Positions 36,821-64,000 of a DNA stretch of 64,000 nucleotides are shown here, piece by piece. The notes under the pieces were generated by a model. The model was not told the origin of the DNA. It saw only the letters and a program-made list of their open reading frames with translations, and made no database searches. The first letter of the stretch is position 1; each line of letters opens with the position of its first letter. The stretch comes from Candidatus Latescibacterota bacterium (lineage in GTDB: Bacteria; Latescibacterota; UBA2968; UBA8231), in contig OZ244561.1 in NCBI GenBank assembly GCA_965217585.1, positions 6,752,001-6,816,000 on the forward strand, read 5' to 3'. Both the position numbers and the translations under genes were made by a program.

Positions 36821-38134
36821 TCAGTCCGCATCGACTAATTGCCGTGCCAATGATCCCTCGCGCGTCAACGCATACACCACGAGATTCACGCCGAGGTCAT
36901 AGACCGGCAACTCATCCGCCCCCGTGACAAAACGACCGCCGATAAAGCTCTCGCGGATCCGCTCGGCCTCGCCGGCGAACAGGTCCGCGTAGTTCTTTTG
37001 TGAGTAAACCCCCACGATGCGGCCATCCACCTCAATGCCCTCCAAGTAATTGGGCGACAATTCAAAGCGATACTCACTATGCCAAAACCAGATGTCCCAG
37101 AAGCCGCGCGGCAGAGAGTCCACGTCGTAGAAGCAATGGTAGAGCGGGTGCTCGGGCGGCAACCGCACAAAAGACCAATCTTTGTGTTCGGCGTAGTCAA
37201 TCTGCTGAAAGGCTTGGCGAATGAAATCGCGCAACGCCGGCAGGTCGTGCTGATAGCTGCCAGCGAGAGAGACAGGTTGGGAGATAATATCCGCATAGAG
37301 GAACCCACCCGAGATTAGATAACGGCCCAGATTTTTGGCTTCGACTTGGGTGAAGGAGACTTCGCCCCGAACCGTCAGCAGTAGAAACGGCACCTGCATC
37401 AGCAGCGGGTCATCTAAGGCGACGCCGTCGAGTACTTCGGTATGCACGCCGGTGCGCTCGCTCATTTTGTCGGCTAGGTTCTGCAGCATGCGCCGCTCGG
37501 AAATGCTGCGCGACCACCCCCCGCTGCGCTCCGAACGCGAGCTGGCGTCGGCGCGTTCGAGTGCTTCGCTGTGGATGCCCGATAAGTAGAGAAAACCCTT
37601 GAGTTTGCGCCGGTCTTTTGGATCAACCACTACCATCGCCCGGTGCCGACCCGTATCCATCGCCTCTACATCCATCAGTTCCAAGGACAAGTCAATCTCG
37701 TCAGCCCCCTGCCGCGTTCCTTGCAACGCCCCAGCGCGCAGTTGCGGCCCAATGTGCCGAGCGGGGAAATCCGGCACTGGCAGCACCAGTCGATCCGGCA
37801 GTGCCGCCGTCGGCAGCCGCAGAGCCGATGACTTGAACACCGGCAACGGACGCGACGCCGAGGGGGCCGGCCGCACGGCAGCCACCGGGGCAGCTTGAAG
37901 GGCGGGACGGCGCACCAATGGGCGTTGCATGGGCCGTTGGCGGCGGGTGAGGGTGCGCTGCGGCGGCGGACGCTTGGTAAACTTGAGCATGATCGGCGGC
38001 AGCACGGGGTATTGCGTAACCTGCTCGCGGTGCGTGATGCCGAAAATCACCAGCAGATGCAAGGCCAGCGACAACACCAAGCAGCTTTGCAGCTTTCTAT
38101 TCTTTCGGAACGGGACTTTCCACGGCCGTTTCAT
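36821..38134 (-). CDS. DUF4159-domain protein with N-terminal TM and Pro-rich linker (copy 1)
   Basis: LSLALHLLVIFG; NLGRYL.SGGFLYAD, LPPEHPLYHCFYD, LGVN.VVYALT; start moved to 38134. Confidence 0.8.
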   Translation of the reverse strand: MKRPWKVPFRKNRKLQSCLVLSLALHLLVIFGITHREQVTQYPVLPPIMLKFTKRPPPQRTLTRRQRPMQRPLVRRPALQAAPVAAVRPAPSASRPLPVFKSSALRLPTAALPDRLVLPVPDFPARHIGPQLRAGALQGTRQGADEIDLSLELMDVEAMDTGRHRAMVVVDPKDRRKLKGFLYLSGIHSEALERADASSRSERSGGWSRSISERRMLQNLADKMSERTGVHTEVLDGVALDDPLLMQVPFLLLTVRGEVSFTQVEAKNLGRYLISGGFLYADIISQPVSLAGSYQHDLPALRDFIRQAFQQIDYAEHKDWSFVRLPPEHPLYHCFYDVDSLPRGFWDIWFWHSEYRFELSPNYLEGIEVDGRIVGVYSQKNYADLFAGEAERIRESFIGGRFVTGADELPVYDLGVNLVVYALTREGSLARQLVDAD

Positions 38135-38162
38135 CTGCTTATGCCCTCTCTTTTCGGCAGAG

Positions 38163-39608
38163 TCACCCATTCAATCGTCCGTCTTTGTCTGGTTGGACAG
38201 AATCCGCCCGGTCAAAGACCACCTCACTGCCCTGTCGGACGTGTGGCAGACCGCGACTCAGGTTGCGGTGGAGCAAGGTGCGGAGCTCCTCGACGCCGAG
38301 GTTGGCCGGGGTGCTCAGGTTGAGGTAGTGGAGAAATTCGGGCTCGGGCATCCGATAGGCCGGCTCGATCTGGTGAGCGGAACGCTGGGCGACAAAAAAG
38401 GCGTCCACTGCATCGGCCGCGGCCTCGCCCCCATCCAATTCTCCAATATGTGCGGCAAGGGCTTGGCAACGCGGAGCGAATTCGTCGCTCCGAGATAGAA
38501 GATCGTCTATGGCCTCTAACAGGGGGTCCATCTGAAGAAACTCATCCCAGTTGAGCTTGCATCCCAAGCCAAGGTCGCGCACTCGGTTGAGGTGGTACTC
38601 CTCGTCCAACTTCTCGGGAGTGCCGATCACGGGCACACCTTGGCGCAAAGCATGGTAGATGGAACCAATGCCGCCCACACCAACGAAGAGAGCAGCACGT
38701 GCCAACACCCAAGCCGCCGGCACAAAGTCAACGACGCGGATATTGGGAGCCTCTATTTGTCCTGACCAACGACCGGCCGTGGTCACCAAGACGCGGTAGG
38801 GCTTGTTGGCCATGCGGTGTAGTGCCTCGTCGAGAAAGCCGAGATAAGCACCGGTGCTACCGCAATTGAAATAGACCAGCGGTAACGGATCGTCCCAATC
38901 GTCCAATTCCGCGATGGGGCGGGGCGGCGGCGACTCGATCAGTGGCCCCACATAGCAGTAGGAAGGAGTCTGTTCGCCCAGTGGATGGAATTGGGGCACA
39001 TCGGCGACCAAGTGGAGGGTATGGTGCGGCTTGAAGGTTGATATGTTGTCGCGAGCGTATTCGTCGAATGGCTCGGTGCCCAAGGAAAAGGTGGTGGGCA
39101 GGCGAATGGGAAACGGATAGTCCGGTTGGTTGTAGGCCGCCTCTATCAGGGCTATATCCATCCCCTCAAGAGAGGCGGTGAGCGGCAAGGTGGGCCGCAT
39201 GTCTGCCAGCGCGAGGGCGGGGCAAAGTTGCCGGATAAGGGTGCGTTCGGCTTGCACACAACGATCTATCCACTCCGCATTGTAATAGCCGTAGTCGCCG
39301 CGGGCCACGTACTCGTCCATGCGGCTTTGCGGCATGGTTTCTACTTCGTAAACCTGAAACCCTTCGGCGGCGATCCGGTCTGCGTGAGGCCCCACTCCCG
39401 CGAATTCCACGGGATACCCGCGCACTCGTAGAGCTCGTCCTACGACCAGAGGGCGGATGGTGTGGGCCAAGCTATAGCCGTGAAAAAAGATCAGTACTGG
39501 ACATTCGTGGCGCGGTAGGCCCTCAACCGTGCCGACCCGTTGCAGACGGACGCTCAAATGTTCCAAGCCAGCCGCTAGGTGTTGGCGCAATTTCTTCAGC
39601 ATGTCCAC
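38163..39608 (-). CDS. GT-B glycosyltransferase (GT1/MGT-like)
   Basis: GYSLAHTIR, YVGPL, VYFNCGSTG, DFVP...GGIGSIYHAL..GVP. Confidence 0.82.
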   Translation of the reverse strand: MDMLKKLRQHLAAGLEHLSVRLQRVGTVEGLPRHECPVLIFFHGYSLAHTIRPLVVGRALRVRGYPVEFAGVGPHADRIAAEGFQVYEVETMPQSRMDEYVARGDYGYYNAEWIDRCVQAERTLIRQLCPALALADMRPTLPLTASLEGMDIALIEAAYNQPDYPFPIRLPTTFSLGTEPFDEYARDNISTFKPHHTLHLVADVPQFHPLGEQTPSYCYVGPLIESPPPRPIAELDDWDDPLPLVYFNCGSTGAYLGFLDEALHRMANKPYRVLVTTAGRWSGQIEAPNIRVVDFVPAAWVLARAALFVGVGGIGSIYHALRQGVPVIGTPEKLDEEYHLNRVRDLGLGCKLNWDEFLQMDPLLEAIDDLLSRSDEFAPRCQALAAHIGELDGGEAAADAVDAFFVAQRSAHQIEPAYRMPEPEFLHYLNLSTPANLGVEELRTLLHRNLSRGLPHVRQGSEVVFDRADSVQPDKDGRLNG

Positions 39609-39623: not shown

Positions 39624-41816
39624 CTATTCGAGTTTGACCATCTTGCGGATGCGCGTCTGCTCGCCTTGGTGTAGCCGCACCAGATAGACCCCAGCGGCGA
39701 CGGATTGCCCCTGTGCATCCCGACCATCCCAAGCCAGTCGGTGTTCGCCCGCCGCCAAGGGGCCATTCCACACTTGATGCACTGGCTGCCCCAAGACGTT
39801 GTAGATCGTTAAATCCACATCGCCAGCACCAGCCACCACCGATACGGGGATGGTCGTGGCCGGATTGAACGGGTTGGGATAGTTGGCACCAAGGACAAAG
39901 GCTGAGGGCGTGGTCGCCGTCTCGGCGGCGATAGCGGTAGCGGCTGGTACGCCTTGGTTGAGAAAGACGAAGGCCCCGCCATCGTCACCTTCCACACTCT
40001 GCCCCAACACCACCAAATCGGTCGCCCCATCGCCGTTGACATCGCCCGCGAGCACTTGATCGCCCATGCCCGGCAGGGGGTAGCGCCCTTCGACGACGGG
40101 CACCCCATCGCGCTGACCGACCAAGACGATCAGTGCCGGACCCGTCGCCGGGTTGATATCGACCACGGCCAAGTCCTGCAGACCATCGCCGGTCAGGTCA
40201 CTGGCAACGACCCCACCACCACCAGAATACGGATTCGACACGAGCACCTGCGGACCGAGCAGGGTGTGGCGTTCCACCTCGCCCGAGGCGTCCACCCGCC
40301 ACAGCACCAAACCGTGGTAGGTGGTGCGAAAATCAAAGTCGAAGAATAGATCGCGCTCGGACGTCCCAACCAACTCCACCGCCCCATCCCCATCCAAGTC
40401 GGTGAGCAGGCGCAGGTCACAGAGATTGACCTCGGCGTCAAAAAACAGCGGCGGTGGCTGGCTGGCCGCCCACGGCTGGGTCAGACGCCAAGCCCCCTGC
40501 TTGCACGATCGGGTCCACAACACGCGCACGGGCTCGCCCTCCGGTTGCCCTGCCAGCAGCCAAGGAAAGAGCTCTTCTTCGGTGTCGAGGTCAAACCGAT
40601 CGCTGTGGGCAAACCCAGCCGCGCCGTCATTGACCCACATAGTCACGTTGGACCATCGGTCGTCGAGGTCCTCGACGACCACCAGGTCCACATCGCCATC
40701 GCCGTCGCCATCGACTAGGCCACCGAACGAGACGTCGGATAGCTGCAGGATGGTTTCAAAGCCATTCTCGCCTCGGTTGTGCCACAATTCGAGGGCCAGA
40801 CCTTCACGAAAGGCCAGATCAAGCAGCCCATCCCCGTCCAAATCGCCCCCATCAAGCTCCCGCAACCTGCTTTCTGATAAAAGCACCTGTCGGGTGGGAA
40901 TCAAGCCGCCCAAACCGTCGCTGGACGCTACCGTCCAGCCCGATTGGCCCGTCCTCTCAAACGTCTCTTCGGTCACTTTGACGGTCGTGAAGTATAGCCA
41001 GACCACCACCAGATCGGCATCCCCATCGCCGTCCACATCGCCCAAAACACCTTGCGATAGTCCCTCACCGATACCCCGGCCCAGCACAGAAAAACGCGGG
41101 GCAGCGAACAACGCCCCGGGCAACCCGGCCGCGGCGTGTTCCCGAGGCTGCAATTCCCCCAGCAGCAACTCTTCGGCCCCCTCCAGTTGAATCCAATCCA
41201 CTTCGACAAAGGCCGGATGATCGGCCGGACTCTGTGGGTTTGAGTTTAACACGAGCTTGAGTTGCAAGTGGAAGAGGGTGTCTTGCCAAACGAGCGCGGT
41301 ATCCGCCCAGATGGTCGCAATCGGCTCTTGTCGTCTCGCTTCCAAACCGGCTTCCAAGGCGCGTATATCTATGGTGATGTTTTCCCATTCGATGGGATAG
41401 TATTGATAACGGCCCGTATAAAGCCCCGACAGGTCGGGCATTGCGCTTGGGTCCGCTTCCTGCTTGCGGCGTCTGGACTCGACATTGGACCAGTGCATCA
41501 GGAGGGTTCCCCCGGTAGGGCGATCATGGATGATGCGCAGCCGGAGGGTGACCCGGTCGAACAGGGCCGAGTCTTCCCCAATCAGCGGCGAGAGCAAGTT
41601 AATGGCCGGTCGTTGCGCGTTCGGCACCGGCGCAATGCGCCAGACGCCGTCTTCTACTTCGCTGTACACCGCGGTGGGAGTACCTCCACTGAGACTGCCT
41701 AAGTCGCTCTCGTGGGCGGTCCAGCCCCACGTGGTGCCCTCGTCAAAATCCCACGTTAAAGCCAAGGCTCCCAGCGGAGCCGACAACAATCCTATTGTAA
41801 TGAGCAAGCAGCGCAT
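39624..41816 (-). CDS. Secreted CBM-like + FG-GAP repeat + FlgD-Ig/CTD protein (A1)
   Basis: Signal peptide, WDFDEG..GW...VDWIQL domain, about six GDxDGDG.DL motifs, NYPNPFNP...WDGRD. Confidence 0.88.
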   Translation of the reverse strand: MRCLLITIGLLSAPLGALALTWDFDEGTTWGWTAHESDLGSLSGGTPTAVYSEVEDGVWRIAPVPNAQRPAINLLSPLIGEDSALFDRVTLRLRIIHDRPTGGTLLMHWSNVESRRRKQEADPSAMPDLSGLYTGRYQYYPIEWENITIDIRALEAGLEARRQEPIATIWADTALVWQDTLFHLQLKLVLNSNPQSPADHPAFVEVDWIQLEGAEELLLGELQPREHAAAGLPGALFAAPRFSVLGRGIGEGLSQGVLGDVDGDGDADLVVVWLYFTTVKVTEETFERTGQSGWTVASSDGLGGLIPTRQVLLSESRLRELDGGDLDGDGLLDLAFREGLALELWHNRGENGFETILQLSDVSFGGLVDGDGDGDVDLVVVEDLDDRWSNVTMWVNDGAAGFAHSDRFDLDTEEELFPWLLAGQPEGEPVRVLWTRSCKQGAWRLTQPWAASQPPPLFFDAEVNLCDLRLLTDLDGDGAVELVGTSERDLFFDFDFRTTYHGLVLWRVDASGEVERHTLLGPQVLVSNPYSGGGGVVASDLTGDGLQDLAVVDINPATGPALIVLVGQRDGVPVVEGRYPLPGMGDQVLAGDVNGDGATDLVVLGQSVEGDDGGAFVFLNQGVPAATAIAAETATTPSAFVLGANYPNPFNPATTIPVSVVAGAGDVDLTIYNVLGQPVHQVWNGPLAAGEHRLAWDGRDAQGQSVAAGVYLVRLHQGEQTRIRKMVKLE

Positions 41817-42070: not shown

Positions 42071-44266
42071 CTATTCAAGTTTGACCATCTTGCGGATGCG
42101 CGTCTGCTCGCCCATCTGCAACCGATATAAATAGACCCCGGCAGCGACGGATTTCCCCTGCGCGTCCCGGCCATCCCAAGCCAGCCGATGCTCACCCGCC
42201 GCCAGCGGACCATTCCACACCTGGCGCACCGGCTGCCCCAAGACGTTGTAGATAGTTAAATCCACATCGCCAGCTTCGGCAGGCACAGCAAAGGGGATCG
42301 TCGTGCCTGGATTGAATGGATTGGGATAGTTGGCACCGAGGACAAAGGCCGAGGGCGTGGCTGCTGTCTCGGCCGCGATAGCTGTGACTGCTGGAACACC
42401 TTGGTTGAGGAAGACGAAGGCCCCGCCATCGTCACCTTCCACGCTCCGCCCCAACACCACCACATCGGTCGCCCCATCGCCGTTGACATCGCCCGCGAGC
42501 ACTTGGCTACCCATGCCCGGCAGGGGGTAGCGCCCTTCGACGACGGGCACCCCATCGCGCTGACCGACCAAGACGATCAGTGCCGGACCCGTCGCCGGGT
42601 TGATATCGACCACGGCCAAATCCAGCAGACCATCGCCGGTCAGGTCACTGGCAACGACCCCACCACCACCAGAATACGGATTCGATACGAGCACCTGCGG
42701 ACCGAGTAGGGTGTGGCGTTCCACCTCGCCCGAGGCGTCCACCCGCCACAGCACCAAACCGTGGTAGGTGGTGCGAAAATCAAAGTCGAAGAATAGATCG
42801 CGCTCGGGCGTCCCAACCAACTCCACCGCCCCATCCCCATCCAAGTCGGTGAGCAGGCGCAGGTCACAGGGATTGCCCACGACGTCAAAAAACAGCGGCG
42901 GTGGCTGGCTGGCCGCCCACGGCTGGGTCAGACGCCAAGACCCCTGCTTGCACGATCGGGTCCACAACACGCGCACGGCCTCGCCCTCCGGTTGCCCTGC
43001 CAGCAGGAGACTACTGAACTCTTCTTCAGTGTCGAGGTCAAACCGATCACTGTGGGCAAACCCAGCCGCGCCGTCATTGACCCACATAGTCACGTTGGAC
43101 CATTGGGCGTCGAGGTCCTCGACAACCACCAGGTCCACATCGCCATCGCCGTCGCCATCGACTAGGCCACGGAACAAGACGTCGGATAGCTGCAGGATGG
43201 TTTCAAAGCCATTCTCGCCTCGGTTGTGCCACAATTCGAGGGCCAGACCTTCACGAAAGGCCAGATCGAGCAGCCCATCCCCGTCCAAATCGCCCCCCGC
43301 AAAATTCCGCAGCAACCCGCTTTCTGAGAAAAGCACCTGTCGGGTGGGAATCAAGCCGCCCAAACCGTCGCTGGACGCTACCGTCCAGCCCGATTGGTCC
43401 GTCATCTCAAACGTCTCTTCGGTCACTTGAACGGTCGTGAAGTATAGCCAGACCACCACCAGATCGGCATCCCCATCGCCGTCCACATCGCCCAAAACAC
43501 CTTGCGATATTGGGCCACCGATACCTTGGCCCAGCACAGAAAAACGCGGGGCAGCGAACAACGCCCCGGGCAACCCGGCCTCGACGATTTCCCGAGGCTG
43601 CAATTCCCCCAGCAGCAACTCTTCGGCCCCCTCCAGTTGAATCCAATCGACTTCGACAAAGGCCGGATGATCGGCCGGACTCTGTGGGTTTGAGTTTAAC
43701 ACGAGCTTGAGTTGCAAGTGGAAGAGGGTGTCCTGCCAAACGAGCGCGGTATCCCCCCAAATGGTCGCAATCGGCTCTTGTCGTCTCGCTTCCAAACCGG
43801 CTTCCAAGGCGCGTATATCTATGGTGATGTTTTCCCATTCGATGGGATAGTATTGATAACGGATCGTATAAAGCCCCGACAGGTCGGGCACTGCGCTTGG
43901 GTCCGCTTCCTGCTTGCGGCGTCTGGACTCGACATTGGACCAGTTCATCAGGAGGTTTCCCCCGGTAGGGCGATCATGGATGATGCGCAGCCGGAGGGTG
44001 ACCCGGTCGAACAGGGCCGAGTCTTCCCCAATCAGCGGCGAGAGCAAGTTAATGGCCGGTCGTTGCCCGTCCGGCACCGGCGCAATGCGCCAGACGCCGT
44101 CTTCTACTTCGCTGTACACCGCGGTGGGAGTACCTCCACTGAGACTGCCTAAGTCGCTCTCGTGGGCGGTCCAGCCCCACGTGGTGCCCTCGTCAAAATC
44201 CCACGTTAAAGCGAAAGCTCCAAGTGGTGCCGACAACAATCCTATTGTAATGAGCAAGTAGCGCAT
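42071..44266 (-). CDS. Secreted CBM-like + FG-GAP repeat + FlgD-Ig/CTD protein (A2), near-identical to A1
   Basis: Same architecture; start moved to ATG 44266 with GGAGG RBS. Confidence 0.88.
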   Translation of the reverse strand: MRYLLITIGLLSAPLGAFALTWDFDEGTTWGWTAHESDLGSLSGGTPTAVYSEVEDGVWRIAPVPDGQRPAINLLSPLIGEDSALFDRVTLRLRIIHDRPTGGNLLMNWSNVESRRRKQEADPSAVPDLSGLYTIRYQYYPIEWENITIDIRALEAGLEARRQEPIATIWGDTALVWQDTLFHLQLKLVLNSNPQSPADHPAFVEVDWIQLEGAEELLLGELQPREIVEAGLPGALFAAPRFSVLGQGIGGPISQGVLGDVDGDGDADLVVVWLYFTTVQVTEETFEMTDQSGWTVASSDGLGGLIPTRQVLFSESGLLRNFAGGDLDGDGLLDLAFREGLALELWHNRGENGFETILQLSDVLFRGLVDGDGDGDVDLVVVEDLDAQWSNVTMWVNDGAAGFAHSDRFDLDTEEEFSSLLLAGQPEGEAVRVLWTRSCKQGSWRLTQPWAASQPPPLFFDVVGNPCDLRLLTDLDGDGAVELVGTPERDLFFDFDFRTTYHGLVLWRVDASGEVERHTLLGPQVLVSNPYSGGGGVVASDLTGDGLLDLAVVDINPATGPALIVLVGQRDGVPVVEGRYPLPGMGSQVLAGDVNGDGATDVVVLGRSVEGDDGGAFVFLNQGVPAVTAIAAETAATPSAFVLGANYPNPFNPGTTIPFAVPAEAGDVDLTIYNVLGQPVRQVWNGPLAAGEHRLAWDGRDAQGKSVAAGVYLYRLQMGEQTRIRKMVKLE

Positions 44267-44462: not shown

Positions 44463-44621
44463 TCACGGAGGACAGGTACAGGACGTATCCTTGACTACGC
44501 ATCCTTTATCAGGATGGTGGGCCCATTTCTTGTCCAACGAATTTGTAAGGATGTGATGGTGATCCCAGTCGCATATTACGTTGGAGCAGTGCCAGCCTTC
44601 GCTGCAGGGATCGGCCTGCGC
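44463..44621 (-). pseudogene. Start-less remnant of a small six-cysteine peptide gene
   Basis: Frame absent from the ORF track reads AQADPCSEGWHCSNVICDWDHHHILTNSLDKKWAHHPDKGCVVKDTSCTCPP*. Confidence 0.4.
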
Positions 44622-44624
44622 CCG

Positions 44625-45168
44625 CTCGGTGCAGCGTCGCCAGCCACGTCGTACCCGCTGAGTCGGTGGCTGCGTCGTACACCCGCCCTATGGGCTGATC
44701 CCCAATAGTCGTCGTACGCTCTACGCACCGATCCCCAACAAACCAGCCAATCCCCGCGCCGGTCAGGACCTGTATCGAGCCATCAGTCTGCGGTTGCAGG
44801 CTCAAAATGTCGTTGCAGGGCAGCCCGTGCTCGATGGTGTACACCTGAAACCCACGCGGGCCTAAGACAGCCAGTCCACCGCCGAGCGTACCGAAGAGGA
44901 GCCGTCCGTCTGTGTCCTCGGCAACGGTCATTACCGTCAGATGAGGTAGCCCCTCCCCCAAGCCAAAGGTATCGAAATGCTCCCCGTCGAACCGACTCAC
45001 CCCACCGTCGGCCGTGGCGATCCAGAGCAGCCCCCGGCGGTCCTGATAGACATCTTCCACTTGCATGCCGGCCAGCCCATCAGAAACGGTGTACCGGTGC
45101 CCCAGCACATGATTAAAGGACTTTATTTGTTTCGGGTTCTGTTCGGCTTGGCTCGTCTCGTCCACCAC
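44625..45168 (-). pseudogene. Truncated third paralog of the beta-propeller sensor
   Basis: DGLAGMQVEDVYQDRRGLLWIATADGGVSRFDG; homology to the activators stops after AGTTWLAT. Confidence 0.8.
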
Positions 45169-45265: not shown

Positions 45266-45280
45266 GCACATTCCGTGCCA
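45266..45280 (-). promoter_or_regulatory. Sigma-54 (-24/-12) promoter 1
   Basis: TGGCACGGAATGTGC (GG-N10-GC) downstream of a sigma-54 activator gene. Confidence 0.8.
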
Positions 45281-45400
45281 AAAATTAGGGTGCCGACAAA
45301 AAAATCCTTTAGGACACCCTAAAGGATTGAAAAACATACGACTTAAAATATGGTACGGGTCTTTATATAATGCGTGGCCTCGCCATCAGCACAAGGCAAC

Positions 45401-45479
45401 ATACGATTTTCCGTATCCTCAATACGATTTTCCGTATCCTCAATACGATTTTCCGTATCCTCAATACGATTTTCCGTAT
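45401..45479. repeat. Tandem 21-bp repeat (4 palindromes), putative enhancer (UAS) array
   Basis: ATACGATTTTCCGTAT(CCTCA) starting at 45401, 45422, 45443 and 45464. Confidence 0.85.
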
Positions 45480-52052: not shown

Positions 52053-52069
52053 CTGTTCACATCCCTTCG

Positions 52070-52200
52070 CAAAAACACAAGGCACTCACGGCGCAGCAGG
52101 CCCTCAACCGTGCCGGCCCGTTCCAGACAGACGCTCAGACGCTGCAAGCCACCCGCTAGGTGTTGGCGCAATTTCTCCAGCATGTCCGCTCCAAGCCCTA
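52070..52200 (-). pseudogene. 5' remnant of the glycosyltransferase gene
   Basis: Matches 39490-39620 (GGCCCTCAACCGTGCCG...GTTGGCGCAATTTCT.CAGCATGTCC). Confidence 0.8.
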
Positions 52201-54394: not shown

Positions 54395-56181
54395 CTATTC
54401 GAGTTTGACCATCTTGCGGATGCGCGTCTGATCGCCCACTTGCAACCGATACAAATAGACCCCGGCGGCGACGGATTGCCCTTGGGCATCCCGACCATCC
54501 CAAGCCAGCCGATGTTCGCCAGCCACCAGTGAACCCGCCCACACTTGGCGCACTGGCTGCCCCAAGACGTTGTAGATGGTTAAGTCCACATCACCAGCTC
54601 CGGCGGGCACGGCCAAGGGGATGGTCGTGCCCGGATTGAATGGATTGGGGTAGTTGGCACCGAGGGCAAAGGCCGAGGGCGTTGCCGCCGTCTCGCTGGC
54701 AACGGCTGTGGCTGGAACGCCTTGGTTGAGGAAGACGAAGGCCCCGCCGCCCCCTTCCACACTCCGCCCCAGTACGACCAGATCGGTCGCCTCATCGCCG
54801 TTTACATCGCCAGCGAGCATCTCGTTGCCGATGCCCGGCAGCGGGTAGCGCCCTTCGACGACGGGCACCCCATCGCGCTGGCCGACCAATATTACCAGTG
54901 CCGGACCCGTCGTCGCGTTGGCATCGACCACGGCCAAGTCCAAAAGGCCATCGCCGGTCAGGTCACGGGCAATGACCTGACCATTATACACATACGGATT
55001 CCGCACAAGCACCTGCGGCCCGAGCAGGTCATGGCGTTCGACCCCGCCCGAGGCGTCCACCCGCCACAGTGCCAAACCGTGGTAGGTGTTGCGAAAAAGA
55101 AAGTCGAAGAACAGATTCCGCTCGGGCGTCCCGACCAACTCCACCGCCCCATCCCCATCCAGATCGGCGAGCAGGTGCATATCGCAGGGATTGACCGCGA
55201 TCTCAAAAAACAGCGAGGGCGGCTGGCTGGTCGCCCACGGCTGGGTCAGACGCCAAGGCCCCACCGGCTTGTAGCACGGTCGGTTCCACAACAGGCGCAC
55301 GGCCTCGCCCAACGATTGCCCTGGCAGCAGTAAATGACCGAGCTCCTCTTCGGTGTCGAGGACGAACCGATCGCTGTCGGCAAACCCGGCCGCGCCATCA
55401 TTGATCCACATAGTCACGTTGGACCATAGGTCGTCGCGATCCTCGACCACCAACAGGTCCACATCACCGTCGCCGTCGCCATCGGCTAGGCCAAGGAAAT
55501 AGCTGTCGGATAGCTGTAGGATGGTTTCAAAGCCATCCTCGCCCCGGTTGTGCCACAATTCGAGGGTGGAACCTTGATTAAAGGCCAGATCGAGCAGCCC
55601 ATCCCCGTCAAAATCGCCCCCCGCAATCTCCGGAAAAGCCTCGCTTGGGAGGAGGACCTCTCGGGTGGGGACCAAGCCGCCCACTCTTCTTCTGGGTGCG
55701 CTTCCGCAGCGGCTTCCAAGGCGCGTATATCTATGGTGATGTTTTCCCATTCGATGGGGTAAAGTTGATCACGGCCCATAGAAAACCCCAACGGTATTAT
55801 GGAGCGTTGGCTGCGTTGGCCCGCTTCCTTCTTGCGGCGTCTGGACTCGCCATTGGACCACGCCATCAGGAGGTTCCCCTCGGTGGGGCGATCGTGGATG
55901 ATGCGCAGCCGTAAGGTAACCCAGTCGAACAGGGCCGAGTCTTCCCCAATCAGCGGCGAGACCAAGCTAATGGCGGGTTCTTGCCCCGTCGGCACCGGCG
56001 CAATGCGCCAGACGCCCTCTTCGACTTCGCTGTACACTGTGGTGGGGACACCACGGTCAGTTCCTAAGAGACTCTCGTGGGCGGTCCATCCCCAAGTAGT
56101 GCCCTCGTCAAAATCCCACGTTAAAGCGAAGGCTCCAAGTGGAGCCACCAACAACAAAATTGCTAAGAGCAAGCAGCGCAT
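54395..56181 (-). pseudogene. FG-GAP paralog A4, frameshifted by an internal deletion near 55680
   Basis: N- and C-halves lie in different frames; the segment equivalent to about 53500-53835 of A3 is missing. Confidence 0.85.
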
Positions 56182-56297: not shown

Positions 56298-56312
56298 GCA
56301 GGTTGCGTGCCA
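56298..56312 (-). promoter_or_regulatory. Sigma-54 (-24/-12) promoter 2
   Basis: TGGCACGCAACCTGC (GG-N10-GC) at the position equivalent to promoter 1. Confidence 0.8.
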
Positions 56313-56435
56313 ACGATCAGGCCATGCACAAAAAAATCCTTTAGGATACACCTAAAGAATTGAAAAACATGATACTTAAAATTATGGGACGAGTCTTTCT
56401 ACGAGGCACCGCCTCGCCGTCGGCGCAAGGCTTTC

Positions 56436-56489
56436 CACGATTTTTCGTGTATTTCCACGATTTTTTCGTGGGTCTCCACGACTTTCGTT
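56436..56489. repeat. Three phased CACG-N5-7-CGT(G) palindromes, putative UAS array
   Basis: CACGATTTTTCGTG at 56436, CACGATTTTTTCGTG at 56456, CACGACTTTCGTT at 56477. Confidence 0.75.
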
Positions 56490-56526: not shown

Positions 56527-59500
56527 CTACTTCTTCGGGCGTCGTAACCCGTATTTCTGCATGCGGTAACGCAGCTTCTCCGGGTGCATACCCAACAACG
56601 CGGCTGCACCGTGTACGCCATAGATCCTCCAGTGGGTCGCTTGCAGTGCCTCCACAATCTGCTGCTTTTCGTCCACATCTTTGGCCGGCGGCGTCGCTTC
56701 GTCCGCGTCTTCAGTTCGTCGTTCAGCCGACGGGAGTTCCCCATCCCCGGCGGGCGGCGCAACCGACGACAACGACAAATCCTCCACCCGCACCACGCCG
56801 TCCTTGCACAGCAAGACGGCGCGTTGAATCACGTGCTCCAGCTCGCGCACATTCCCCGGCCAAGCATACCCCTGCAAGTGCGCGACCACCCCGTCGTCTA
56901 AGGTCGGCACTGGTCGCCGTAGGTGCCGAGCATACCGCTCCGCAAAATGCGCCGCCAAAGCCGGGATATCCTCTTGCCGCTGCCGCAGTGGTGGAAGCTC
57001 TAGCGTGAAGACGCTCAGGCGATAGAATAGATCTTCGCGGAACGTGCCGTCTTGGATGGCCTGCCGCAGGTCGCGGTTGGTCGCCGCGATGACCCGCACG
57101 TCCACGCTCACAGGCTGCTGGCCGCCGACGCGGGTCAGTGTATTCTCCTCTAAGATGTGCAGCAGCACCCGCTGAGACTCCAACGGCAAATCGCCGATTT
57201 CGTCCAAAAAGAGCGTGCCACCATCGGCCAGTTCAAAGCGGCCGAGTTGACGGCTAGCCGCCCCGGTAAAGGCCCCTTTCTCGTGGCCGAATAACTCGCT
57301 TTCGACCAACCCGGCCGGCAGCGCTCCGCAGTTGACGCGGATAAAGGGCCGCTTGCGGCGAGTGCTTGTTTCGTGGATGATCTGCGCGAGTATGCCCTTG
57401 CCCGTACCGGTCTCGCCCAGCACCAGCACGGTCATCGCCGTCTCGGCGACGCGCACGGTCTGTTCCAGCACTTGGCGCATAGCCCAACTCTGGCTGTGCA
57501 CGACGTGGTCGGTAGCCCGCAAGACGCTTTCAAGGGCGTGGATGCGTTCGGTTTTGGCGTCGGGGAGGATTTGAATCTCCACGCTGGCCACCTCGGACAG
57601 CAGGCCATCGCGGTCCATCGTCCGCACCTCAAAGCAATACTCGCCCACCGGCAAAGCATTGTACGCGACGGTATCGGCGGCTGTAAACGCGCTCCATTGT
57701 TCCACCGGACCGTGCCCTAACAAGCGGTGGCTGTAGCGCATTTGTCCAGCACCCGTGCGGAAGCTGATGCCCTGGAAGTGAATACGGATTTCAGGGGTAC
57801 TCTCTGGGCAGGCTACAGCTTCGGGCGCGGCCAAGAGGGTGCCGGCCATGACCTCGCGGATGACCAAGCGCGGCGGTGTGTGTCCCGGCTGGTAGGCAAC
57901 CAGCCCCGCCCGCGTCCCAAACCATAGCCGGCCGAGATGATCGCATAGGACGGCTTCGACCTTGTTTTCGAGGGCGGATGGCCCCAAGCGGATGCTCTGG
58001 AAGGTCTCGCCGTCGTAGCGGAGGACGCCGCCACCGCTGGTGCCCATCCAGATGTTGCCCTGCGAATCGGCGGTCAGCGCCAAGATGCCATTGGCGGACA
58101 GCCCAAACTGCTCGGCAGTAAACCGGCGCACCTCTCGCGACGAGAGATCAAGGGCGAAAAGTCCCTTGGCCGTGCCTATCCACAGGGTGTTTTGATGCTC
58201 CCACAAGACGTTGACGTAGGCAATGGTTTCCGTCTCGGCCACTTCCGCTGGACGGAACTGACCGTCCTCGTAATAGTAGAGTGCCGGCACCATTCCGTAT
58301 GAACTAACCCAGAATACTCCCCTCTGGTCTTGCAGTAGGGCGCGGCATTCTTCAAACATCCAACCGGCGAGAGGGGTGAAGCGATTTTCCTCTATCCAGC
58401 CGAGGCGGCCCGTAAGCTCGGTGGCCCATATACGCCCTTGCCCATCCTCGCACAATCCCGAGATTTCCCCAGAGTGGGGATCTTCGGCCACTACGATCAT
58501 TTGCGGCGTTTGCCCCTCCCACCTGAACACTTTGCCCGCGTCCCCACCGCTCCAGACCTGCCCTTGGCTATCCACCACCATCGCCGAGACCATTTCACGA
58601 GGTCCTACCGGAAGAATCTGGTCGTCTTCCATGTAGGCCATGCCCCCCATCGTGCCGATCCACATCCGATTCTTGTGATCTTCGCCTAAGTAGCGAATCT
58701 CGTGGTCGGGCAGACCGTCGACTTCGATGTAGCGACGGATGCTGGCCGGATCGCAAAAAATTAGACCACCGCCCCAAAGCCCGATCCAGATATTGCCCTC
58801 GCGATCCTCGTAGGTCAGGCGCGTATCCGAAAAGTCAATATCCGGTAGGGTGGCGGAAAAGGGGTACCACTCTTGACCGTCGTGTACCACCACACCCCGA
58901 TGGGTCAACCAGAGCCAACCCCTAGCGTCAACTCGCATGTGCCGCGTCCCGTTCTGCGCGGCTCTGTCGGTTCCATTGCCCACGTTAATGAACGCAAACT
59001 GCTCATCTTTCGGATCGTAGCGACCGATCAAAACTTCAGTACCCGTGTAACGGAAGGCGATCCACAGATGGCCAGAAGGGTCTTGGGCGAATTTCCAAGG
59101 CCATTGGACTGCCTGGTTCCCGATACCCATGCGCCTTCCATCTAAGCTGATGACGCCTTGACCCGTAGTCGCCAGCCAAGTAGTACCGCCCGCGTCGGTA
59201 GCCATATCGTACACTCGCCCCAAAGGTTGGCCGCCAACATCGGTTATACACTTCACACAGCGGCCCTCGGCAAACCAAGCCACGCCCGCGCTGGTCATCG
59301 CCACAATCGAACCGTCCGGCTGGTCTTGTAGGCCCAAAATCTCGTTGGAAGGCAGGCCGTGATCGATGGTGTACACCTGAAAACCGCGCCCGTCGTACGC
59401 GGCAAGCCCCCCGCCTAACGTGCCAAACAGTAGCCGCCCGTCCGCATCCTCAGCAATGGCCATGACCGTCAGATTGGGCAGACCGTCTTTGAGACCAAGG

Positions 59501-59664
59501 TTATCAAAATGGGCGCTGTCGAACCGGCTGACGCCGCCGTCGGCGGTGGCAACCCAGAGAAAGCCTTGGCGGTCTTGGTAGATGTCTTCCACATGCATCC
59601 CAGCCAGTCCGTCAAAGACCGTGTACTGGCTGCTCAACACGTGCTCAAAGGATATGTCGCTCAT
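56527..59664 (-). CDS. Sigma-54 enhancer-binding protein with beta-propeller + Y_Y_Y sensor (copy 2)
   Basis: Paralog of 45631-48774 with all AAA+ motifs intact. Confidence 0.93.
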   Translation of the reverse strand: MSDISFEHVLSSQYTVFDGLAGMHVEDIYQDRQGFLWVATADGGVSRFDSAHFDNLGLKDGLPNLTVMAIAEDADGRLLFGTLGGGLAAYDGRGFQVYTIDHGLPSNEILGLQDQPDGSIVAMTSAGVAWFAEGRCVKCITDVGGQPLGRVYDMATDAGGTTWLATTGQGVISLDGRRMGIGNQAVQWPWKFAQDPSGHLWIAFRYTGTEVLIGRYDPKDEQFAFINVGNGTDRAAQNGTRHMRVDARGWLWLTHRGVVVHDGQEWYPFSATLPDIDFSDTRLTYEDREGNIWIGLWGGGLIFCDPASIRRYIEVDGLPDHEIRYLGEDHKNRMWIGTMGGMAYMEDDQILPVGPREMVSAMVVDSQGQVWSGGDAGKVFRWEGQTPQMIVVAEDPHSGEISGLCEDGQGRIWATELTGRLGWIEENRFTPLAGWMFEECRALLQDQRGVFWVSSYGMVPALYYYEDGQFRPAEVAETETIAYVNVLWEHQNTLWIGTAKGLFALDLSSREVRRFTAEQFGLSANGILALTADSQGNIWMGTSGGGVLRYDGETFQSIRLGPSALENKVEAVLCDHLGRLWFGTRAGLVAYQPGHTPPRLVIREVMAGTLLAAPEAVACPESTPEIRIHFQGISFRTGAGQMRYSHRLLGHGPVEQWSAFTAADTVAYNALPVGEYCFEVRTMDRDGLLSEVASVEIQILPDAKTERIHALESVLRATDHVVHSQSWAMRQVLEQTVRVAETAMTVLVLGETGTGKGILAQIIHETSTRRKRPFIRVNCGALPAGLVESELFGHEKGAFTGAASRQLGRFELADGGTLFLDEIGDLPLESQRVLLHILEENTLTRVGGQQPVSVDVRVIAATNRDLRQAIQDGTFREDLFYRLSVFTLELPPLRQRQEDIPALAAHFAERYARHLRRPVPTLDDGVVAHLQGYAWPGNVRELEHVIQRAVLLCKDGVVRVEDLSLSSVAPPAGDGELPSAERRTEDADEATPPAKDVDEKQQIVEALQATHWRIYGVHGAAALLGMHPEKLRYRMQKYGLRRPKK

Positions 59665-60129: not shown

Positions 60130-61778
60130 TCACGGCAGCTTCGTCGTCTTTTTCGCTTCCACCCGCCCGTCGATTTCGACCTTATAGATATACACCCCGG
60201 CGGCAACTCCCTTGCCCGCCTCGTCGCGCCCATCCCAAGTAAAGCGATGTGTACCCGCCCCCAGCGGTCCGTCCCACACCTGCCGCACCCGACGACCCAA
60301 CACATCGTACACCGTCAGCGACACCCCCGCCGCGTCCATCGCCAAATCGAGGGGAATCACCACTTGGGGATTGAATGGATTCGGATAGCTGTCGCCCAGC
60401 CGATACTGCGCTGGCCGCACGGCTGCGGTCGTCAGTACCGCGGTCGCCTGCTCGCCCAACGAACTCTTGAGCACATGCACCCCACCCAAGATCGGATCCA
60501 ACGCGACCAAATCCACATCGCCGTCCCCATCCATATCCCCCGACAGCACGGTGGTCGCCCGGCCCTCCAGCCGATGCCGCTCCCCGGCTTGAGTAGGACG
60601 GACACTGCCGCCCCATTCGACAAACACCCCAAAGCCCGAGGCGCGGTCTCCCCCGATAAACACCCAGTCTTCTACCCCATCGGCATTCAGGTCGCCCATC
60701 GCCACGGGCGAACCGCGAAACAGCCGCTCATCATACAGCACCGCCGCTTCTACCCGATCCCCGGTGCGCTTTTGCTGCAAGGCCAGCCCCTTGCTGCCTT
60801 CCATTCCATCAAAGATGAACTCCGTGAGCAAATCCACCTGACCATCGCCATCAAAATCGCCCACCCCCAAGAGCCGCTTCCACTCATCGAATTCAAATAT
60901 CTCGCCGCTTTGCAGATCCTCGCCCAAGGTAGCCAGAATCAACCTGTTCGCCTGACCAGCGATCGGCAACCACAACACGTCGAGTGCGCCATCGCCGGTA
61001 AAGTCGCCGATGGTGTCGGCCGAATGCGTTTCGGTCACCCCGACCTCTTCGGCGGTCCACACGCCCTGTGCTACATCCCAGACCTCTAAAAGGCTTCCCT
61101 CCAACGTCGTCTTCCCGACAAATAATTCGACCCGGCCATCCCCATCCCAATCCGCCACATCCCTAGGCGATCTATCTTTAATCTGTACAAGCACCTCGAC
61201 TTGGAGTTCTGGATCGATAGACCAAACCTCTGTTACATGACCATTATTGATTGTAAATAGCACGATTTCGTCTTGCCCATCGCCCGTCAAATCAGCACCC
61301 AGCACCGTTAAGGCCACCCATGAAGATGCCGCTACCTCCTCTATGTGCCTAAGTTCCAAGGCCCCTTGCCCGTCATTGAGCGCCATGAGCCAGCCCGTCG
61401 TAGGCAACCTCCCTTGATAGTACTGCCAGACAGCAAACAGGTCTAAGTCGCCATCGCCATCCAAGTCCGTCAACACGCCGACCTGCTCTGGGCTTAGACC
61501 TTCTCCTAGGCCCGACGCAAGCGGATAGAACACCGGCGGGGCAAAAACGCCCGTCTCATCCCAGCGAAAATAGTCCACGTGAGGAGGGGCTAATTCCCCC
61601 TGTAAGAGCTCTTCCACGCCGGTCAACTCGATCCAGTCGATCTCAAACCACTTGACTAGCTCGCCCAACAGCGGGGCTTCCGCTCTATCCACCCTTGCGT
61701 CGTCCCATCGTCGAAATCCCACTTGATCGCCTCGGCGGAACTGCCCAATAGCACGACGCCTGCAACAACGGCACACAT
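60130..61778 (-). pseudogene. FG-GAP/CTD protein, subtype B, frameshifted by deletion of most of the N-domain
   Basis: ATG 61778 reads MCAVVAGVVLLGSSAEA-IKWDFDDGTTQGW, then the frame shifts near 61680 into FEIDWIELTG and the FG-GAP repeats. Confidence 0.8.
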
Positions 61779-61880
61779 AGCCCTAATCATCTATCCAAGC
61801 CTCCAAACCCCAGCTTTCTAACAAGCTCTGTATGGAAGGAGCGAGTTGCTGGATCATACTGATGCCCTCCAATGCAAATG

Positions 61881-63212
61881 TCAATCTGCGGCGATTAATT
61901 GCCGTGCCAAGGATCCCTCGCGCGTTAGGGCATACACCACTATATTCACCCCCAAATCATAGACCAACTCTTCTTCGGCACTGTCGCGAAACGGACTATT
62001 GATCACATTAAGCGCCATAGCCCAATCCCGCTCCTGCTTGGCGATTCCCGACCAAAAATCGGCGTAGCCCCGCATCGAGTACACCCCCACCAACTGCTCC
62101 CCTACCATTATGCCCTCCAAATAGTCAGGAGTTGGCGGCGGTTTATTTTCTGTTATAAAGTGCATATCGCGCATCCCGCGCGGGAGGCTGCCTACATCGT
62201 AGAAGCAATGATAGATCGGATGGGTTATCTCTAGGCGGGTAAACTGCCAGTCCTTCCCTTCTTGATAGCCTACCGACCGCAAGCTAGCCCGAATCAGGGA
62301 ACGCACCGCGGGGATGTCTAATTCGTCGTCGCTGTAATTGGGAATCAAAAAGCGCACAATATCCGCAAACAAGAAGCCGCCCGAAGTCAAATACGCCCCT
62401 AAATTGGCCGCCTCCGCCTCGGTAAACTCAAAGGGCGTATTCGCCGTCAGCAGTACAAAGGGGACCTGCAAAAGCTGCGGATCGTCGAGTGCCACCGCGT
62501 CGCGCACCTCGACATGGACCTGTGTACTGGCGACCATCTTATCGGCCAACCCATGCAGCATCCGCTTTTCCGCCACTTGGCGCGTCAGGTAAAACCGGCG
62601 CGCTTCAATGCCGATTTTTCCCTGTTCAGCTCGCTCGATGGAAGGGCTATGGACATTGGACAAATAGAGAAAGCCCTTGAGCTTGCGCCGATCCGCTGGA
62701 TCAACTATTACCACGGCCCGATGCCGACCCGTGTCCAACGCCTCCACATCCATTAGCTCCAAGCCCAAGTCGATCTCGTCCGCGCCCTGCCGCACCCCTT
62801 CTAGCGCCCCAACGCGCAGTTGCGGGCCGATGTGCCGAGCGGGAAAATCCGGGATGGGGAGTGCTTGCCGTTCCGGCAGCGATGCCGTAGGCAGCCGAGG
62901 GGCCGACGATTGCAATACTGGCAACGGGCGCACTGCCGAGGGAGCGGGTCGCACAGCAGCAGTCGGGACAGCCTGAAGGGCTGGACGACGCACCAAGGGG
63001 CGCTGGAGGGGGCGTTGGCGGCGGGCGAGGACGCGCGGCGGCGGCGGGCGTTTCATAAATTTTACCACGGACGGAGGTAAGACGGGAAATTGAGTAACCC
63101 GTTCGCGGGGCGTTATCCCGAAAATCACCAACAGATGTAAGGCTAGCGATAACGCCAAGCACCCTTGGAGTTTTCTATTTTTCCAGAGCGGTACTTTCCA
63201 CGGCCGTCTCAT
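61881..63212 (-). CDS. DUF4159-domain protein (copy 3, more divergent)
   Basis: Same TM/Pro-rich/DUF4159 layout; start moved to 63212. Confidence 0.8.
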   Translation of the reverse strand: MRRPWKVPLWKNRKLQGCLALSLALHLLVIFGITPRERVTQFPVLPPSVVKFMKRPPPPRVLARRQRPLQRPLVRRPALQAVPTAAVRPAPSAVRPLPVLQSSAPRLPTASLPERQALPIPDFPARHIGPQLRVGALEGVRQGADEIDLGLELMDVEALDTGRHRAVVIVDPADRRKLKGFLYLSNVHSPSIERAEQGKIGIEARRFYLTRQVAEKRMLHGLADKMVASTQVHVEVRDAVALDDPQLLQVPFVLLTANTPFEFTEAEAANLGAYLTSGGFLFADIVRFLIPNYSDDELDIPAVRSLIRASLRSVGYQEGKDWQFTRLEITHPIYHCFYDVGSLPRGMRDMHFITENKPPPTPDYLEGIMVGEQLVGVYSMRGYADFWSGIAKQERDWAMALNVINSPFRDSAEEELVYDLGVNIVVYALTREGSLARQLIAAD

Positions 63213-63229
63213 CTGCCCACGTCCCTTCC

Positions 63230-64000
63230 TCACGGCAGCTTGGTCGTCTTTTTCGCTTCCGCCCGTCCGTCCACCTCGACCTGATAGATATACACCCCAG
63301 CGGCCACCGCTTTGCCCACCTCGTCGCGGCCATCCCACACAAAACGATGCCTACCCGCCCCAAGTGGCCCCTGCCACACCTGCCGTACCCGACGACCCAA
63401 CACATCATATACCGTCAGCGACACCCCCGCCGCGTCCGTCGCCAAATCAAGGGGAAGCACGACAGCCGGATTGAACGGATTGGGATAGCTATCGCCTAGC
63501 CGATACTGTGCCGGCTGCGCTGCCGACGACGTCAGCACCGCCGTCATCTGCTCGCCCACCGAACTCTTCAACACTTGCACACCGCCCAAGATGGGATTTA
63601 ACACCACCAAGTCCACATCGCCGTCGCCATCGACATCCCCCGGCAACACCCGTACTCCCTCGCCGGCCAAACGATGTCGCTCCACCTCCTTAGCTGGATT
63701 CAAGCCCCCACCCCATTCGACAAACACCCCCAAACCCGAGGCGCGATCCCCGCCGACAAATACCCAATCATCCACCCCGTCCCCATTCAGGTCGCGCACC
63801 ACTACCGGCGAGCGTACAAACAGCCGATCATCATACAGCACCGTCTCCTCCACACCACCCGTTGGTTGGCCTCTCCATAGGAGCAGGCCCTTGTTCTGTT
63901 CGAAGAGGTTGTGTTCGACCGCCCTGAGCAGGTCCACCTGCCCATCGCCATCAAAATCGCCCACTTGGAAAAGACGAGAAAAAGGAATACTCCTCAGATC
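63230..64000 (-). CDS. FG-GAP/CTD protein subtype B, 5' part outside the window
   Basis: GDFDGDGQVDL, DLNGDGVDD, SYPNPFNP...AKKTTKLP. Confidence 0.85.
   Translation of the reverse strand, partial: DLRSIPFSRLFQVGDFDGDGQVDLLRAVEHNLFEQNKGLLLWRGQPTGGVEETVLYDDRLFVRSPVVVRDLNGDGVDDWVFVGGDRASGLGVFVEWGGGLNPAKEVERHRLAGEGVRVLPGDVDGDGDVDLVVLNPILGGVQVLKSSVGEQMTAVLTSSAAQPAQYRLGDSYPNPFNPAVVLPLDLATDAAGVSLTVYDVLGRRVRQVWQGPLGAGRHRFVWDGRDEVGKAVAAGVYIYQVEVDGRAEAKKTTKLP

Follow-up and report, generated by a model that had tools for sequence, protein, structure and literature searches.

A one-strand island of propeller-type sigma-54 activators and variable FG-GAP genes in a Candidatus Latescibacterota bacterium

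Introduction

Hybrid two-component systems (HTCS) of Bacteroides combine sensor and activator in one protein and adjoin their target genes. Their sensor (PDB 3V9F, 4A2L/4A2M, and 3OTT/3VA6) consists of a double Reg_prop propeller and a Y_Y_Y domain. The same sensor is found in a Candidatus Latescibacterota bacterium, in the 64,000-nucleotide stretch of DNA analyzed here (the window, G000:C1:6752001-6816000, within one 7.32-Mb contig). Unlike in the Bacteroides HTCS, it comes without signal peptide, membrane helix, kinase, receiver, or AraC domain and is fused to a sigma-54 AAA+ domain and a helix-turn-helix (HTH), giving a bacterial enhancer-binding protein (bEBP) that is predicted to be cytoplasmic. 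The subject of this study is this bEBP together with the palindrome array, hairpin, −24/−12 promoter, and varying row of genes behind it, many of which encode FG-GAP repeat proteins.

One-component sigma-54 activators of the FhlA, NorR, and NifA types share the GAFTGA AAA+ domain and the Fis-type HTH, and several palindromes ~90-145 nt upstream of GG-N10-GC are common to both. Unlike in those activators, the sensor here is a propeller instead of a GAF domain, the array stands directly behind the activator's own stop codon and is followed by a terminator-like hairpin, and HTH and array appear to be exchanged as a block among paralogues.

The FG-GAP proteins also have described counterparts. The propellers of integrin-alpha, PVL, PLL, and CV39L have the same seven blades and six DxDxDG loops (Z 18-22). 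UmbA lectins, which according to PMC13274773 decide the targets of the Streptomyces umbrella toxin, are likewise diversified propellers that set specificity. Unlike all of these, the proteins described here have an extra N-terminal beta-sandwich and a secretion tail, and no toxin partner is seen. Moreover, the repeat classes found behind the bEBPs are those of the eukaryotic-like proteins (ELPs) of sponge symbionts (WD40, LRR, TPR, NHL, and cadherin/FG-GAP). WD40, LRR, TPR, and NHL ELPs are described for sponge Latescibacterota metagenome-assembled genomes in PMC12993501, in the main text of which the words "secretion" and "sigma" are absent, and ELPs affect sponge phagocytosis according to PMC13747020. 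Unlike the reported ELPs, the repeat proteins here are gathered behind dedicated sigma-54 modules.

In the literature searched, which held few subscription papers and no supplements, this system as such was not described, and there was nothing on Latescibacterota with type IX secretion, nothing informative on DUF4159, and nothing on Reg_prop, Y_Y_Y, and sigma54 together. Each part is of a known kind, and it is the combination, together with the swappable block of HTH and enhancer, that was not found described in these sources.

The Regulatory Module

Two copies of the module lie within the window (window positions throughout):

56527-59664, minus strand: bEBP2, 82% identical to bEBP1, HTH of Tyr type (EKLRYRM)
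56435-56471, minus strand: predicted enhancer array 2, two CACG-N6/7-CGTG palindromes (C type) with a weaker site just upstream; matches the Tyr-type HTH
56330-56361, minus strand: hairpin and T tract 2, with one U-G pair
56298-56312, minus strand: sigma-54 −24/−12 site 2
45631-48774, minus strand: bEBP1, double Reg_prop propeller, Y_Y_Y, sigma54 AAA+ (GAFTGA), HTH of Ser type (EKLRSRM)
45401-45479, minus strand: predicted enhancer array 1, four ATACG-N6-CGTAT palindromes with a 21-nt period (T type); matches the Ser-type HTH
45298-45328, minus strand: 11-bp hairpin and T tract, a predicted intrinsic terminator insulating promoter 1
45266-45280, minus strand: sigma-54 −24/−12 site 1 (GG-N10-GC)
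44509-45168, minus strand: 5' fragment (remnant) of another propeller-bEBP

The order bEBP, palindrome array, hairpin with T tract, −24/−12 site, and variable cargo is the conserved unit, and its regulatory part is well supported. Among 72 full-length bEBPs examined, 69 belong to the ingroup, and array, hairpin with T tract, and −24/−12 site were found behind 54 of these. Across 38 aligned copies of the −24/−12 site the GG and TGC are invariant and the spacing is fixed. The hairpin lies 43-45 nt from the promoter, and the distances from the last array site to the −24 GG cluster at 87-91, 120-126, and 142-146 nt. A search pattern for hairpin, T tract, and sigma-54 site gave 10 matches in the genome against none in a 7.3-Mb order-2 Markov control, which is lenient because the pattern was derived from these very sites. 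Of the 10 genomic modules, six follow an intact bEBP and two a bEBP remnant; the other two have no bEBP nearby. The last two (G000:C1:3655349 and 3659911), one T-type and one C-type, belong to the same FG-GAP row, ~20 kb from sprA. In relatives, C-type arrays precede FG-GAP rows without an adjoining bEBP in six of the 20 loci examined.

Both intact bEBPs of the window carry Walker A (GETGTGK) and GAFTGA in an AAA+ domain (PF00158, E ~4e-69), and an HTH_8 match was found in bEBP2. By hydropathy (maximum 1.25) the bEBPs have neither signal peptide nor transmembrane helix, from which they are predicted to be cytoplasmic. Their sensor is homologous to the glycan-sensing HTCS 3V9F, 4A2L, and 3OTT (phmmer E 1e-48 to 1e-26), and their best NCBIfam scores are those of NifA, FhlA, and NorR, all under the cut-off. 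Control by sigma-54 through the adjoining bEBP, as proposed in an initial annotation of this DNA, is supported by the invariant GG/GC with fixed spacing, by an HTH residue that matches a palindrome base (see below), and by rpoN, a gene which that annotation wished to see checked and which was found in the genome (PF04552, E 1.6e-60). GAFTSA replaces GAFTGA in 17 of the 72 bEBPs, in a clade around G000:C1:820853 and 2761632 where promoter modules are still kept; one subclade of this clade has AAAAGTCGTTC direct repeats.

The hairpin and T tract between array and promoter are a conserved element that had been missed before. Of 342 cells at nine pair positions, 99.1% were paired; two-sided changes and G-U/U-G cells numbered 7 each, and each of the five measures stood above almost all shuffles and every slid control, values which are inflated by sequence relatedness. 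Further, a hairpin and T tract of unrelated sequence precede the promoter at the distant bEBP loci L111, L177, L186, L187, L191, and L194; they are not clear at L163, L182, L184, L185, L188, and L189, and at L173 the hairpin is present and the T tract absent. The element is predicted to be an intrinsic terminator. A protein-binding palindrome is possible as an alternative, since only four pairs are G-C and four are invariant. A candidate IHF-like site overlapping the hairpin was noted by eye only.

The two modules are part of a one-strand island of ~77 kb, with all genes on the minus strand. It extends ~39 kb past the window, to about genome position 6,855,000, and there holds two further intact bEBPs, one remnant, and more FG-GAP, TlpA-like, PD40, WD40, LRR, and Cys-rich genes, none of which figured in the initial annotation. 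Paralogous arrays lie elsewhere in the genome, at 0.79-0.82 Mb and 3.64-3.66 Mb. From the right edge of the window, the order of transcription is FG-GAP, DUF4159, broken FG-GAP, remnants, bEBP2, array, hairpin, and promoter; then broken FG-GAP, FG-GAP, glycosyltransferase (GT) remnant, DUF4159, a Cys-rich gene with a C-terminal domain (CTD), DUF4159 pseudogene, and remnants; then bEBP1, array, hairpin, promoter, bEBP fragment, two FG-GAP genes, a truncated GT, DUF4159, and TPR; and finally a 98-aa open reading frame (ORF), discoidin-CTD, barrel, giant TPR, and lipoprotein. The candidate system as first put forward was partly right: the one-strand island and the sigma-54 module are real, the composition of the unit differs, and the cargo is wider than FG-GAP. 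The single-strand arrangement, the two intact activators (Reg_prop/Y_Y_Y/Sigma54_activat, plus the one 5' fragment), and the palindrome arrays and −24/−12 promoters behind both of them were all recovered. The gene order claimed within the unit is broken up by the TPR gene and the Cys-rich CTD gene.

Matching and Probable Exchange of HTH and Array

A single residue of the HTH follows the palindrome base in 53 of 54 cases. Serine in the recognition motif goes with TACG/CGTA arrays (21/21), and tyrosine with non-T arrays (32/33; 19 C, 13 A, and 1 T). The same rule was obeyed in all 13 held-out cases, which came from five further genomes.

The history of this residue differs between parts of the locus. 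With FastTree trees, made on short DNA, the Ser/Tyr state changes 11 times on the sensor and AAA protein tree, 12 times on AAA DNA, and 10 times on terminator/promoter DNA, and only 3 times on HTH DNA with that codon masked. Three changes against 10-12 therefore suggest few mutational origins and many exchanges, and the conflict between the trees indicates that the HTH and the adjoining array are swapped as one block. The clearest patch is seen between L081 and L083, which are 91-99% identical before the HTH, 76% and 59% across HTH and array, and 97% and 94% beyond.

The FG-GAP Proteins

The six FG-GAP genes counted in the initial annotation were all found, three of them intact, two internally deleted, and one crossing the window edge, and all have a FlgD_ig/Por_Secre_tail:

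63230-64000, minus strand: 3' part of an FG-GAP gene running past the window edge
60130-61790, minus strand: FG-GAP pseudogene of a second subfamily, internal deletion and frame change
54395-56181, minus strand: FG-GAP pseudogene, internal deletion and frame change
52205-54334, minus strand: FG-GAP, intact
42071-44266, minus strand: FG-GAP, intact; signal peptide, beta-sandwich, seven-blade propeller, type-A-like CTD
39624-41816, minus strand: FG-GAP, intact, the modelled copy; 92% identical to its neighbor at 42071-44266

An AlphaFold2 model from 113 sequences (pLDDT 80.9, pTM 0.75) consists of a beta-sandwich (about residues 19-215), a seven-blade propeller (241-620) with six DxDxDG loops, and an Ig-like tail. 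The propeller matched integrin alphaM with Z 22.0 (root-mean-square deviation, rmsd, 11.7 A over 403 residues), integrin alphaL with Z 20.9 (rmsd 4.2 over 329 residues), and the lectins CV39L, BP39L, and PLL (Z 20.8, 20.1, and 19.8) and PVL (range down to 18.4), at rmsd ~4. The N-terminal beta-sandwich has no Pfam family; its nearest Atlas clusters include CBM30 and SGBP-B at 0.86-0.88, at the level of a lead only. The top whole-model Foldseek matches, galactose oxidase and a CBM-sialidase, would suit secreted carbohydrate-active enzymes with a CBM, propeller, and Ig layout. These matches stand at rmsd 17-22 A (galactose oxidase above 20 A) and 8-12% identity, the face that would bear the active site is the most variable one, and the invariant columns are mainly structural or Ca-loop residues, which makes an enzymatic role most improbable. 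Binding of host or neighbor molecules is a plausible role.

Variation is concentrated on one side of the propeller. Among 98 homologues, the 14 top-face loops average 1.0-1.3 bits of entropy vs 0.24-0.45 in the 13 bottom loops (0/100,000 permutations), with faces set from strand order, not coordinates. In structure-defined regions and 21 disjoint pairs out of 53 genes, the ratio of nonsynonymous to synonymous change (dN/dS) reaches 0.60 in the top loops, followed by the N-domain (0.38), the strands (0.34), the bottom loops (0.21), and the CTD (0.16). Values above 1 (1.2-2.1) were discarded as biased, the columns having been chosen for their variability. The CTD has twice the dS of the rest of the protein, which suggests exchange of tails. 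A diversity-generating retroelement was also rejected as the source: the one reverse transcriptase of the genome lies >1 Mb from the FG-GAP arrays and the variation is spread over 14 loops; no template-repeat search was run.

Turnover by birth and death, as first suggested, agrees with copy numbers from 1 to over 20, tandem arrays, and pseudogenes. Such a record could also come from a duplication-prone island under relaxed constraint, in which the module is copied with whatever secreted genes followed it, loop variation is drift, and the paralogues do not differ in function. The many remnants, the breakage of two of the six FG-GAP genes in the window, the top-loop dN/dS, and the joints in DNA runs, which bypass the GT or connect one unit to another and would accord with rearranged strains, fit this explanation. 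It is nonetheless quite unlikely, given purifying selection in the rest of the protein (dN/dS 0.16-0.38), the focus of the variation on one face, the ~20-copy arrays kept in G146, and the two enhancer types kept at promoters without an adjoining bEBP.

A third possibility is a conflict system, in which variable propellers recognize competitor bacteria or serve as phage decoys. The best PDB sequence match of the family profile is UmbA chain 9oee_A (E 1.6e-7), there is a structure match too, and in UmbA lectins diversified propellers set the target range (PMC13274773). The sequence match spans only ~110 residues of FG-GAP repeats, and among the genes of the island none for a toxin or immunity protein and none resembling UmbB/UmbC was seen; this explanation is highly unlikely.

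Predicted Export Route

The FG-GAP proteins have a signal peptide by hydropathy, and their tail passes TIGR04183 (36.3, 30.1, and 24.1 bits vs a cut-off of 23). This layout of signal peptide and C-terminal Ig-like tail is that of the type-A cargo of the Bacteroidota type IX secretion system (T9SS), and sprA, porU, and porV are present in the genome, all over the cut-off. Unlike in Bacteroidota, the tail scores better as FlgD_ig, with its PF18962 match under the cut-off, and the phylum is Latescibacterota. A T9SS-type route is supported by the TIGR04183 scores and the three genes, and the call of the initial annotation for T9SS core genes was answered in part, gldM and gldN being undetected with a silent control. 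These sequence signatures make it likely that the cargo is exported. In the whole genome, a PNPFN-type tail closes 83 ORFs, and 67 carry instead a short WGxIK tail, a possible second export signal that sets this genome apart from Bacteroidota T9SS type-A cargo.

Distribution in Relatives

Full-length FG-GAP relatives (65-79% identity) were found at 14 public loci, 13 from Ca. Latescibacterota/Latescibacteria and one labelled Gemmatimonadota. Of 24 same-genus genomes, 19 have the FG-GAP family and 20 the sensor, and each of the two was found in 0/16 genomes of other families. G017 has a distant bEBP only, and G015, G016, G018, and G023 gave neither FG-GAP nor sensor at the search thresholds used. 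More widely, the FG-GAP N-domain is present in 35/75 genomes of the family and 0/92 others in the phylum, with few to 45 first-look candidates per genome. Weak sensor matches in 89/168 genomes may be other propeller proteins. At G146:C13:3149197-3202095, about 20 tandem FG-GAP genes lie downstream of one bEBP.

Proposed Mechanism

We favor, with moderate confidence, a mechanism in which each cytoplasmic propeller-bEBP, on binding its ligand, switches on the downstream row of exported surface proteins, whose variable face binds host or neighbor molecules. By its domain order and lack of signal or membrane helix, the propeller-bEBP would be a cytoplasmic sensor-activator. Homology to the Bacteroides HTCS sensors suggests a small molecule, probably a sugar taken up by the cell, as the ligand of its double propeller. 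From the covariation, the HTH would then bind the palindromes, which lie ~90-145 nt upstream of the −24 GG, with Ser recognizing TACG, and Tyr either CACG or AACG. The hairpin and T tract would end the bEBP transcript, so that cargo expression would depend on activation. Since the HTH adjoins the array, both could be swapped, still matched, in a single recombination event, and in this way sensors, specificities, and cargo rows may be recombinable, as the tree conflict suggests. The cargo is predicted to exit via Sec and a T9SS-type translocon, and the FG-GAP proteins would be non-enzymatic binders (lectins or integrin-like adhesins) whose top-face loops set specificity.

Several observations weigh against this mechanism or parts of it. 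By the search pattern, 15/69 ingroup bEBPs lack the module, some of them with cargo joined right behind the stop codon and some with a promoter missed by the hairpin pattern, and in other genera many bEBPs are not followed by a promoter. The rule that Ser goes with T fails in the distant bEBPs L184 and L185, which are Ser type with CACG sites; it is clade-limited, distant Ser-type bEBPs using either T or C. The HTH tree is short and weakly supported, and eight of eight "independent pairs" of HTH and array are not eight origins, because HTH and array are physically linked; that count was dropped in favor of about three mutational origins plus swaps. In structure score, WD40 propellers tie with the lectins, and the top-face dN/dS (95% confidence interval 0.51-0.70) is below 1. 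Searches for gldM and gldN found neither gene, with control searches themselves silent and GldK and GldL not searched. Support from RNA consists of contigs from one study (run X1, labelled sponge metagenome), which may include DNA or paralogues; they cover parts of both intact unit-1 FG-GAP genes and short stretches of other genes, are unsuited to locating start sites or ranking genes, and prove nothing by the parts left uncovered. Lastly, according to PMC13747020, a sponge-symbiont cadherin/FG-GAP protein left phagocytosis unchanged when a cyanobacterium expressed it.

A bolder and doubtful extension would be a recombining plug-in regulation of a surface-receptor repertoire. Sensors, self-matched blocks of HTH and enhancer, and antibody-like variable rows of integrin fold would be shuffled independently, and two or three enhancer "channels" would allow a symbiont to display different receptor sets for different host-derived sugars, via a T9SS-type translocon without the GldLM motor.

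The favored mechanism offers a definite and testable account of how the eukaryote-like repeat proteins of an uncultured lineage in sponge samples may be regulated and exported, and all of its regulatory parts are testable in E. coli. The HTH and enhancer would form a natural one-residue code, and an operator directly behind its own DNA-binding domain would explain how paralogous sigma-54 activators are rewired without losing their match. The cytoplasmic propeller-bEBP is, moreover, a candidate scaffold for new biosensors.

Other Cargo and the Distal Cassette

The remaining features of the island within the window are:

61881-63338, minus strand: DUF4159 copy 3, 62% identical to copy 1
50727-52085, minus strand: DUF4159 copy 2, 89% identical to copy 1, preceded by a GT remnant of ~35 codons
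49767-50603, minus strand: Cys-rich secreted protein with type-A-like CTD, of no known family
48775-49700, minus strand: remnants, namely a DUF4159 pseudogene (49148-49700) fused to a STAS-like fragment, a discoidin leader, and a DUF4159 tail
38163-39608, minus strand: GT-B (MGT/EryCIII-like) glycosyltransferase, a C-terminally truncated (481 aa) form of a ~830-aa GT-transglutaminase protein
36821-38170, minus strand: DUF4159 copy 1, with N-terminal membrane helix (SxxxH) and Pro/Arg-rich linker
35569-36774, minus strand: TPR protein, the partner of the GT in distant bEBP operons
35103-35399, minus strand: conserved 98-aa ORF, named "STAS" by eye
26920-35113, minus strand: conserved cassette at the distal end, made up of the next four
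33461-35113, minus strand: discoidin-CTD
30794-33415, minus strand: putative barrel, 873 aa
27672-30794, minus strand: giant TPR
26920-27750, minus strand: lipoprotein

Cargo was counted by best-BLAST labels in the 10 kb downstream of 58 bEBPs for which at least 8 kb had been fetched, and some cargo class was found behind 57 of them. FG-GAP genes stand behind 36, in agreement with the co-location that the initial annotation asked to see in relatives, and TlpA-like genes behind 35 (fragments included). These are followed by PD40 (19, and 6 of a second type), Cys-rich (14), other CTD (13), the 98-aa ORF (13), DUF4159 (9), TPR (7), GT (6), and WD40 (6). Cys-rich CTD proteins (also at L002:14951-17951) are the first gene after the promoter at 10 of the 58. 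The cargo thus varies among FG-GAP, TlpA-like, TolB-like, WD40, and Cys-rich genes, and GT, DUF4159, and "STAS" are not fixed parts.

A fixed seven-gene unit was accordingly given up. The order FG-GAP, GT, DUF4159 occurs once among the 58 bEBPs, and the full order ending in "STAS" in none, the 10-kb cut just leaving out the window's own STAS-like gene; the succession GT, DUF4159, STAS claimed as fixed for the unit is not supported by the counts of its members (6, 9, and 13). The GT said to recur with each unit is present once, unit 2 having only its ~35-codon remnant. An intact "STAS" ORF is present only outside the part of the window first annotated, at 35103-35399. It has no Pfam match at E<=1 and no NCBIfam match, and no STAS was among the PDB-profile matches; a distant homologue has no Pfam match either. 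The three intact DUF4159 genes were confirmed as full-length, at 36821, 50727, and 61881, next to the one pseudogene.

A full-length ~830-aa GT-transglutaminase gene lies downstream of distant bEBPs, including those of G015 and G017, and is followed by GT2 and TPR at L186 and L191. Because distant bEBPs lead to this gene, in the latter loci with TPR, GT and TPR are likely an older target of the bEBP family. Operons headed by distant propeller-bEBPs with the GT-B and transglutaminase fusion, GT2, and TPR were seen at L191, L186, L187, L185, L188, and L111. These operons, preceded at L186 and L187 by an 80-aa peptide ORF, may be a peptide or surface-modification system.

DUF4159 proteins have one membrane helix (often SxxxH) and a long Pro/Arg/Lys linker and mostly occur with barrel/TPR/lipoprotein cassettes. 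This layout is presumably TonB-like, and DUF4159 may energize the barrel cassette. A partnership of DUF4159 with FG-GAP genes was not retained: among the 11 more distant paralogues listed, 7 adjoin giant-TPR and/or lipoprotein genes without FG-GAP. DUF4159 belongs with the genome-wide barrel operons, here at the distal end of the island. The cassette is repeated at about 40 other loci in the genome, with discoidin-CTD (121 in cluster), putative barrel (81), lipoproteins, TPR, and inner-membrane proteins. Only a faint SlpA_C match (E 0.077) was seen; the barrel family is found in 24/24 genus members and 0/16 others. The island barrel is 92-97% identical across 13 other genomes vs 30-43% for other barrel paralogues.

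The cassette raises the question of nutrient capture in the manner of a polysaccharide utilization locus. Under the same regulation, the FG-GAP proteins would be glycan-capture receptors feeding the discoidin/barrel/TPR/lipoprotein/DUF4159 cassette, and the imported sugar would induce them. Homology of the sensor to the glycan-sensing HTCS accords with this, as does the lead from the N-domain to CBM30 and SGBP-B clusters. Moreover, by hand count, a same-strand bEBP stands 8-30 kb upstream of 10 of the 14 orthologous barrel copies in relatives, and no strong intergenic terminator was found from promoter 1 to the barrel. On the other hand, the barrel family is also present in the genus members without FG-GAP, most of the ~80 barrels of the genome have no FG-GAP gene or promoter module beside them, and for many FG-GAP arrays the fetched stretch contains no barrel. 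Neither a SusC/SusD match nor a CAZyme domain was found (Pfam, NCBIfam) among the island proteins and cargo scanned. Nutrient capture is on this evidence considered unlikely, and display of binders for host or neighbor molecules is preferred.

Beyond the cassette, four PhyH-family dioxygenase genes and two enolase-superfamily genes lie at 3305-26832 of the window, with a D12 adenine methyltransferase at 18976-19884 and an AAA ATPase at 22591-24171. A 444-aa ORF without Pfam match lies in a low-GC stretch at 12-14 kb.

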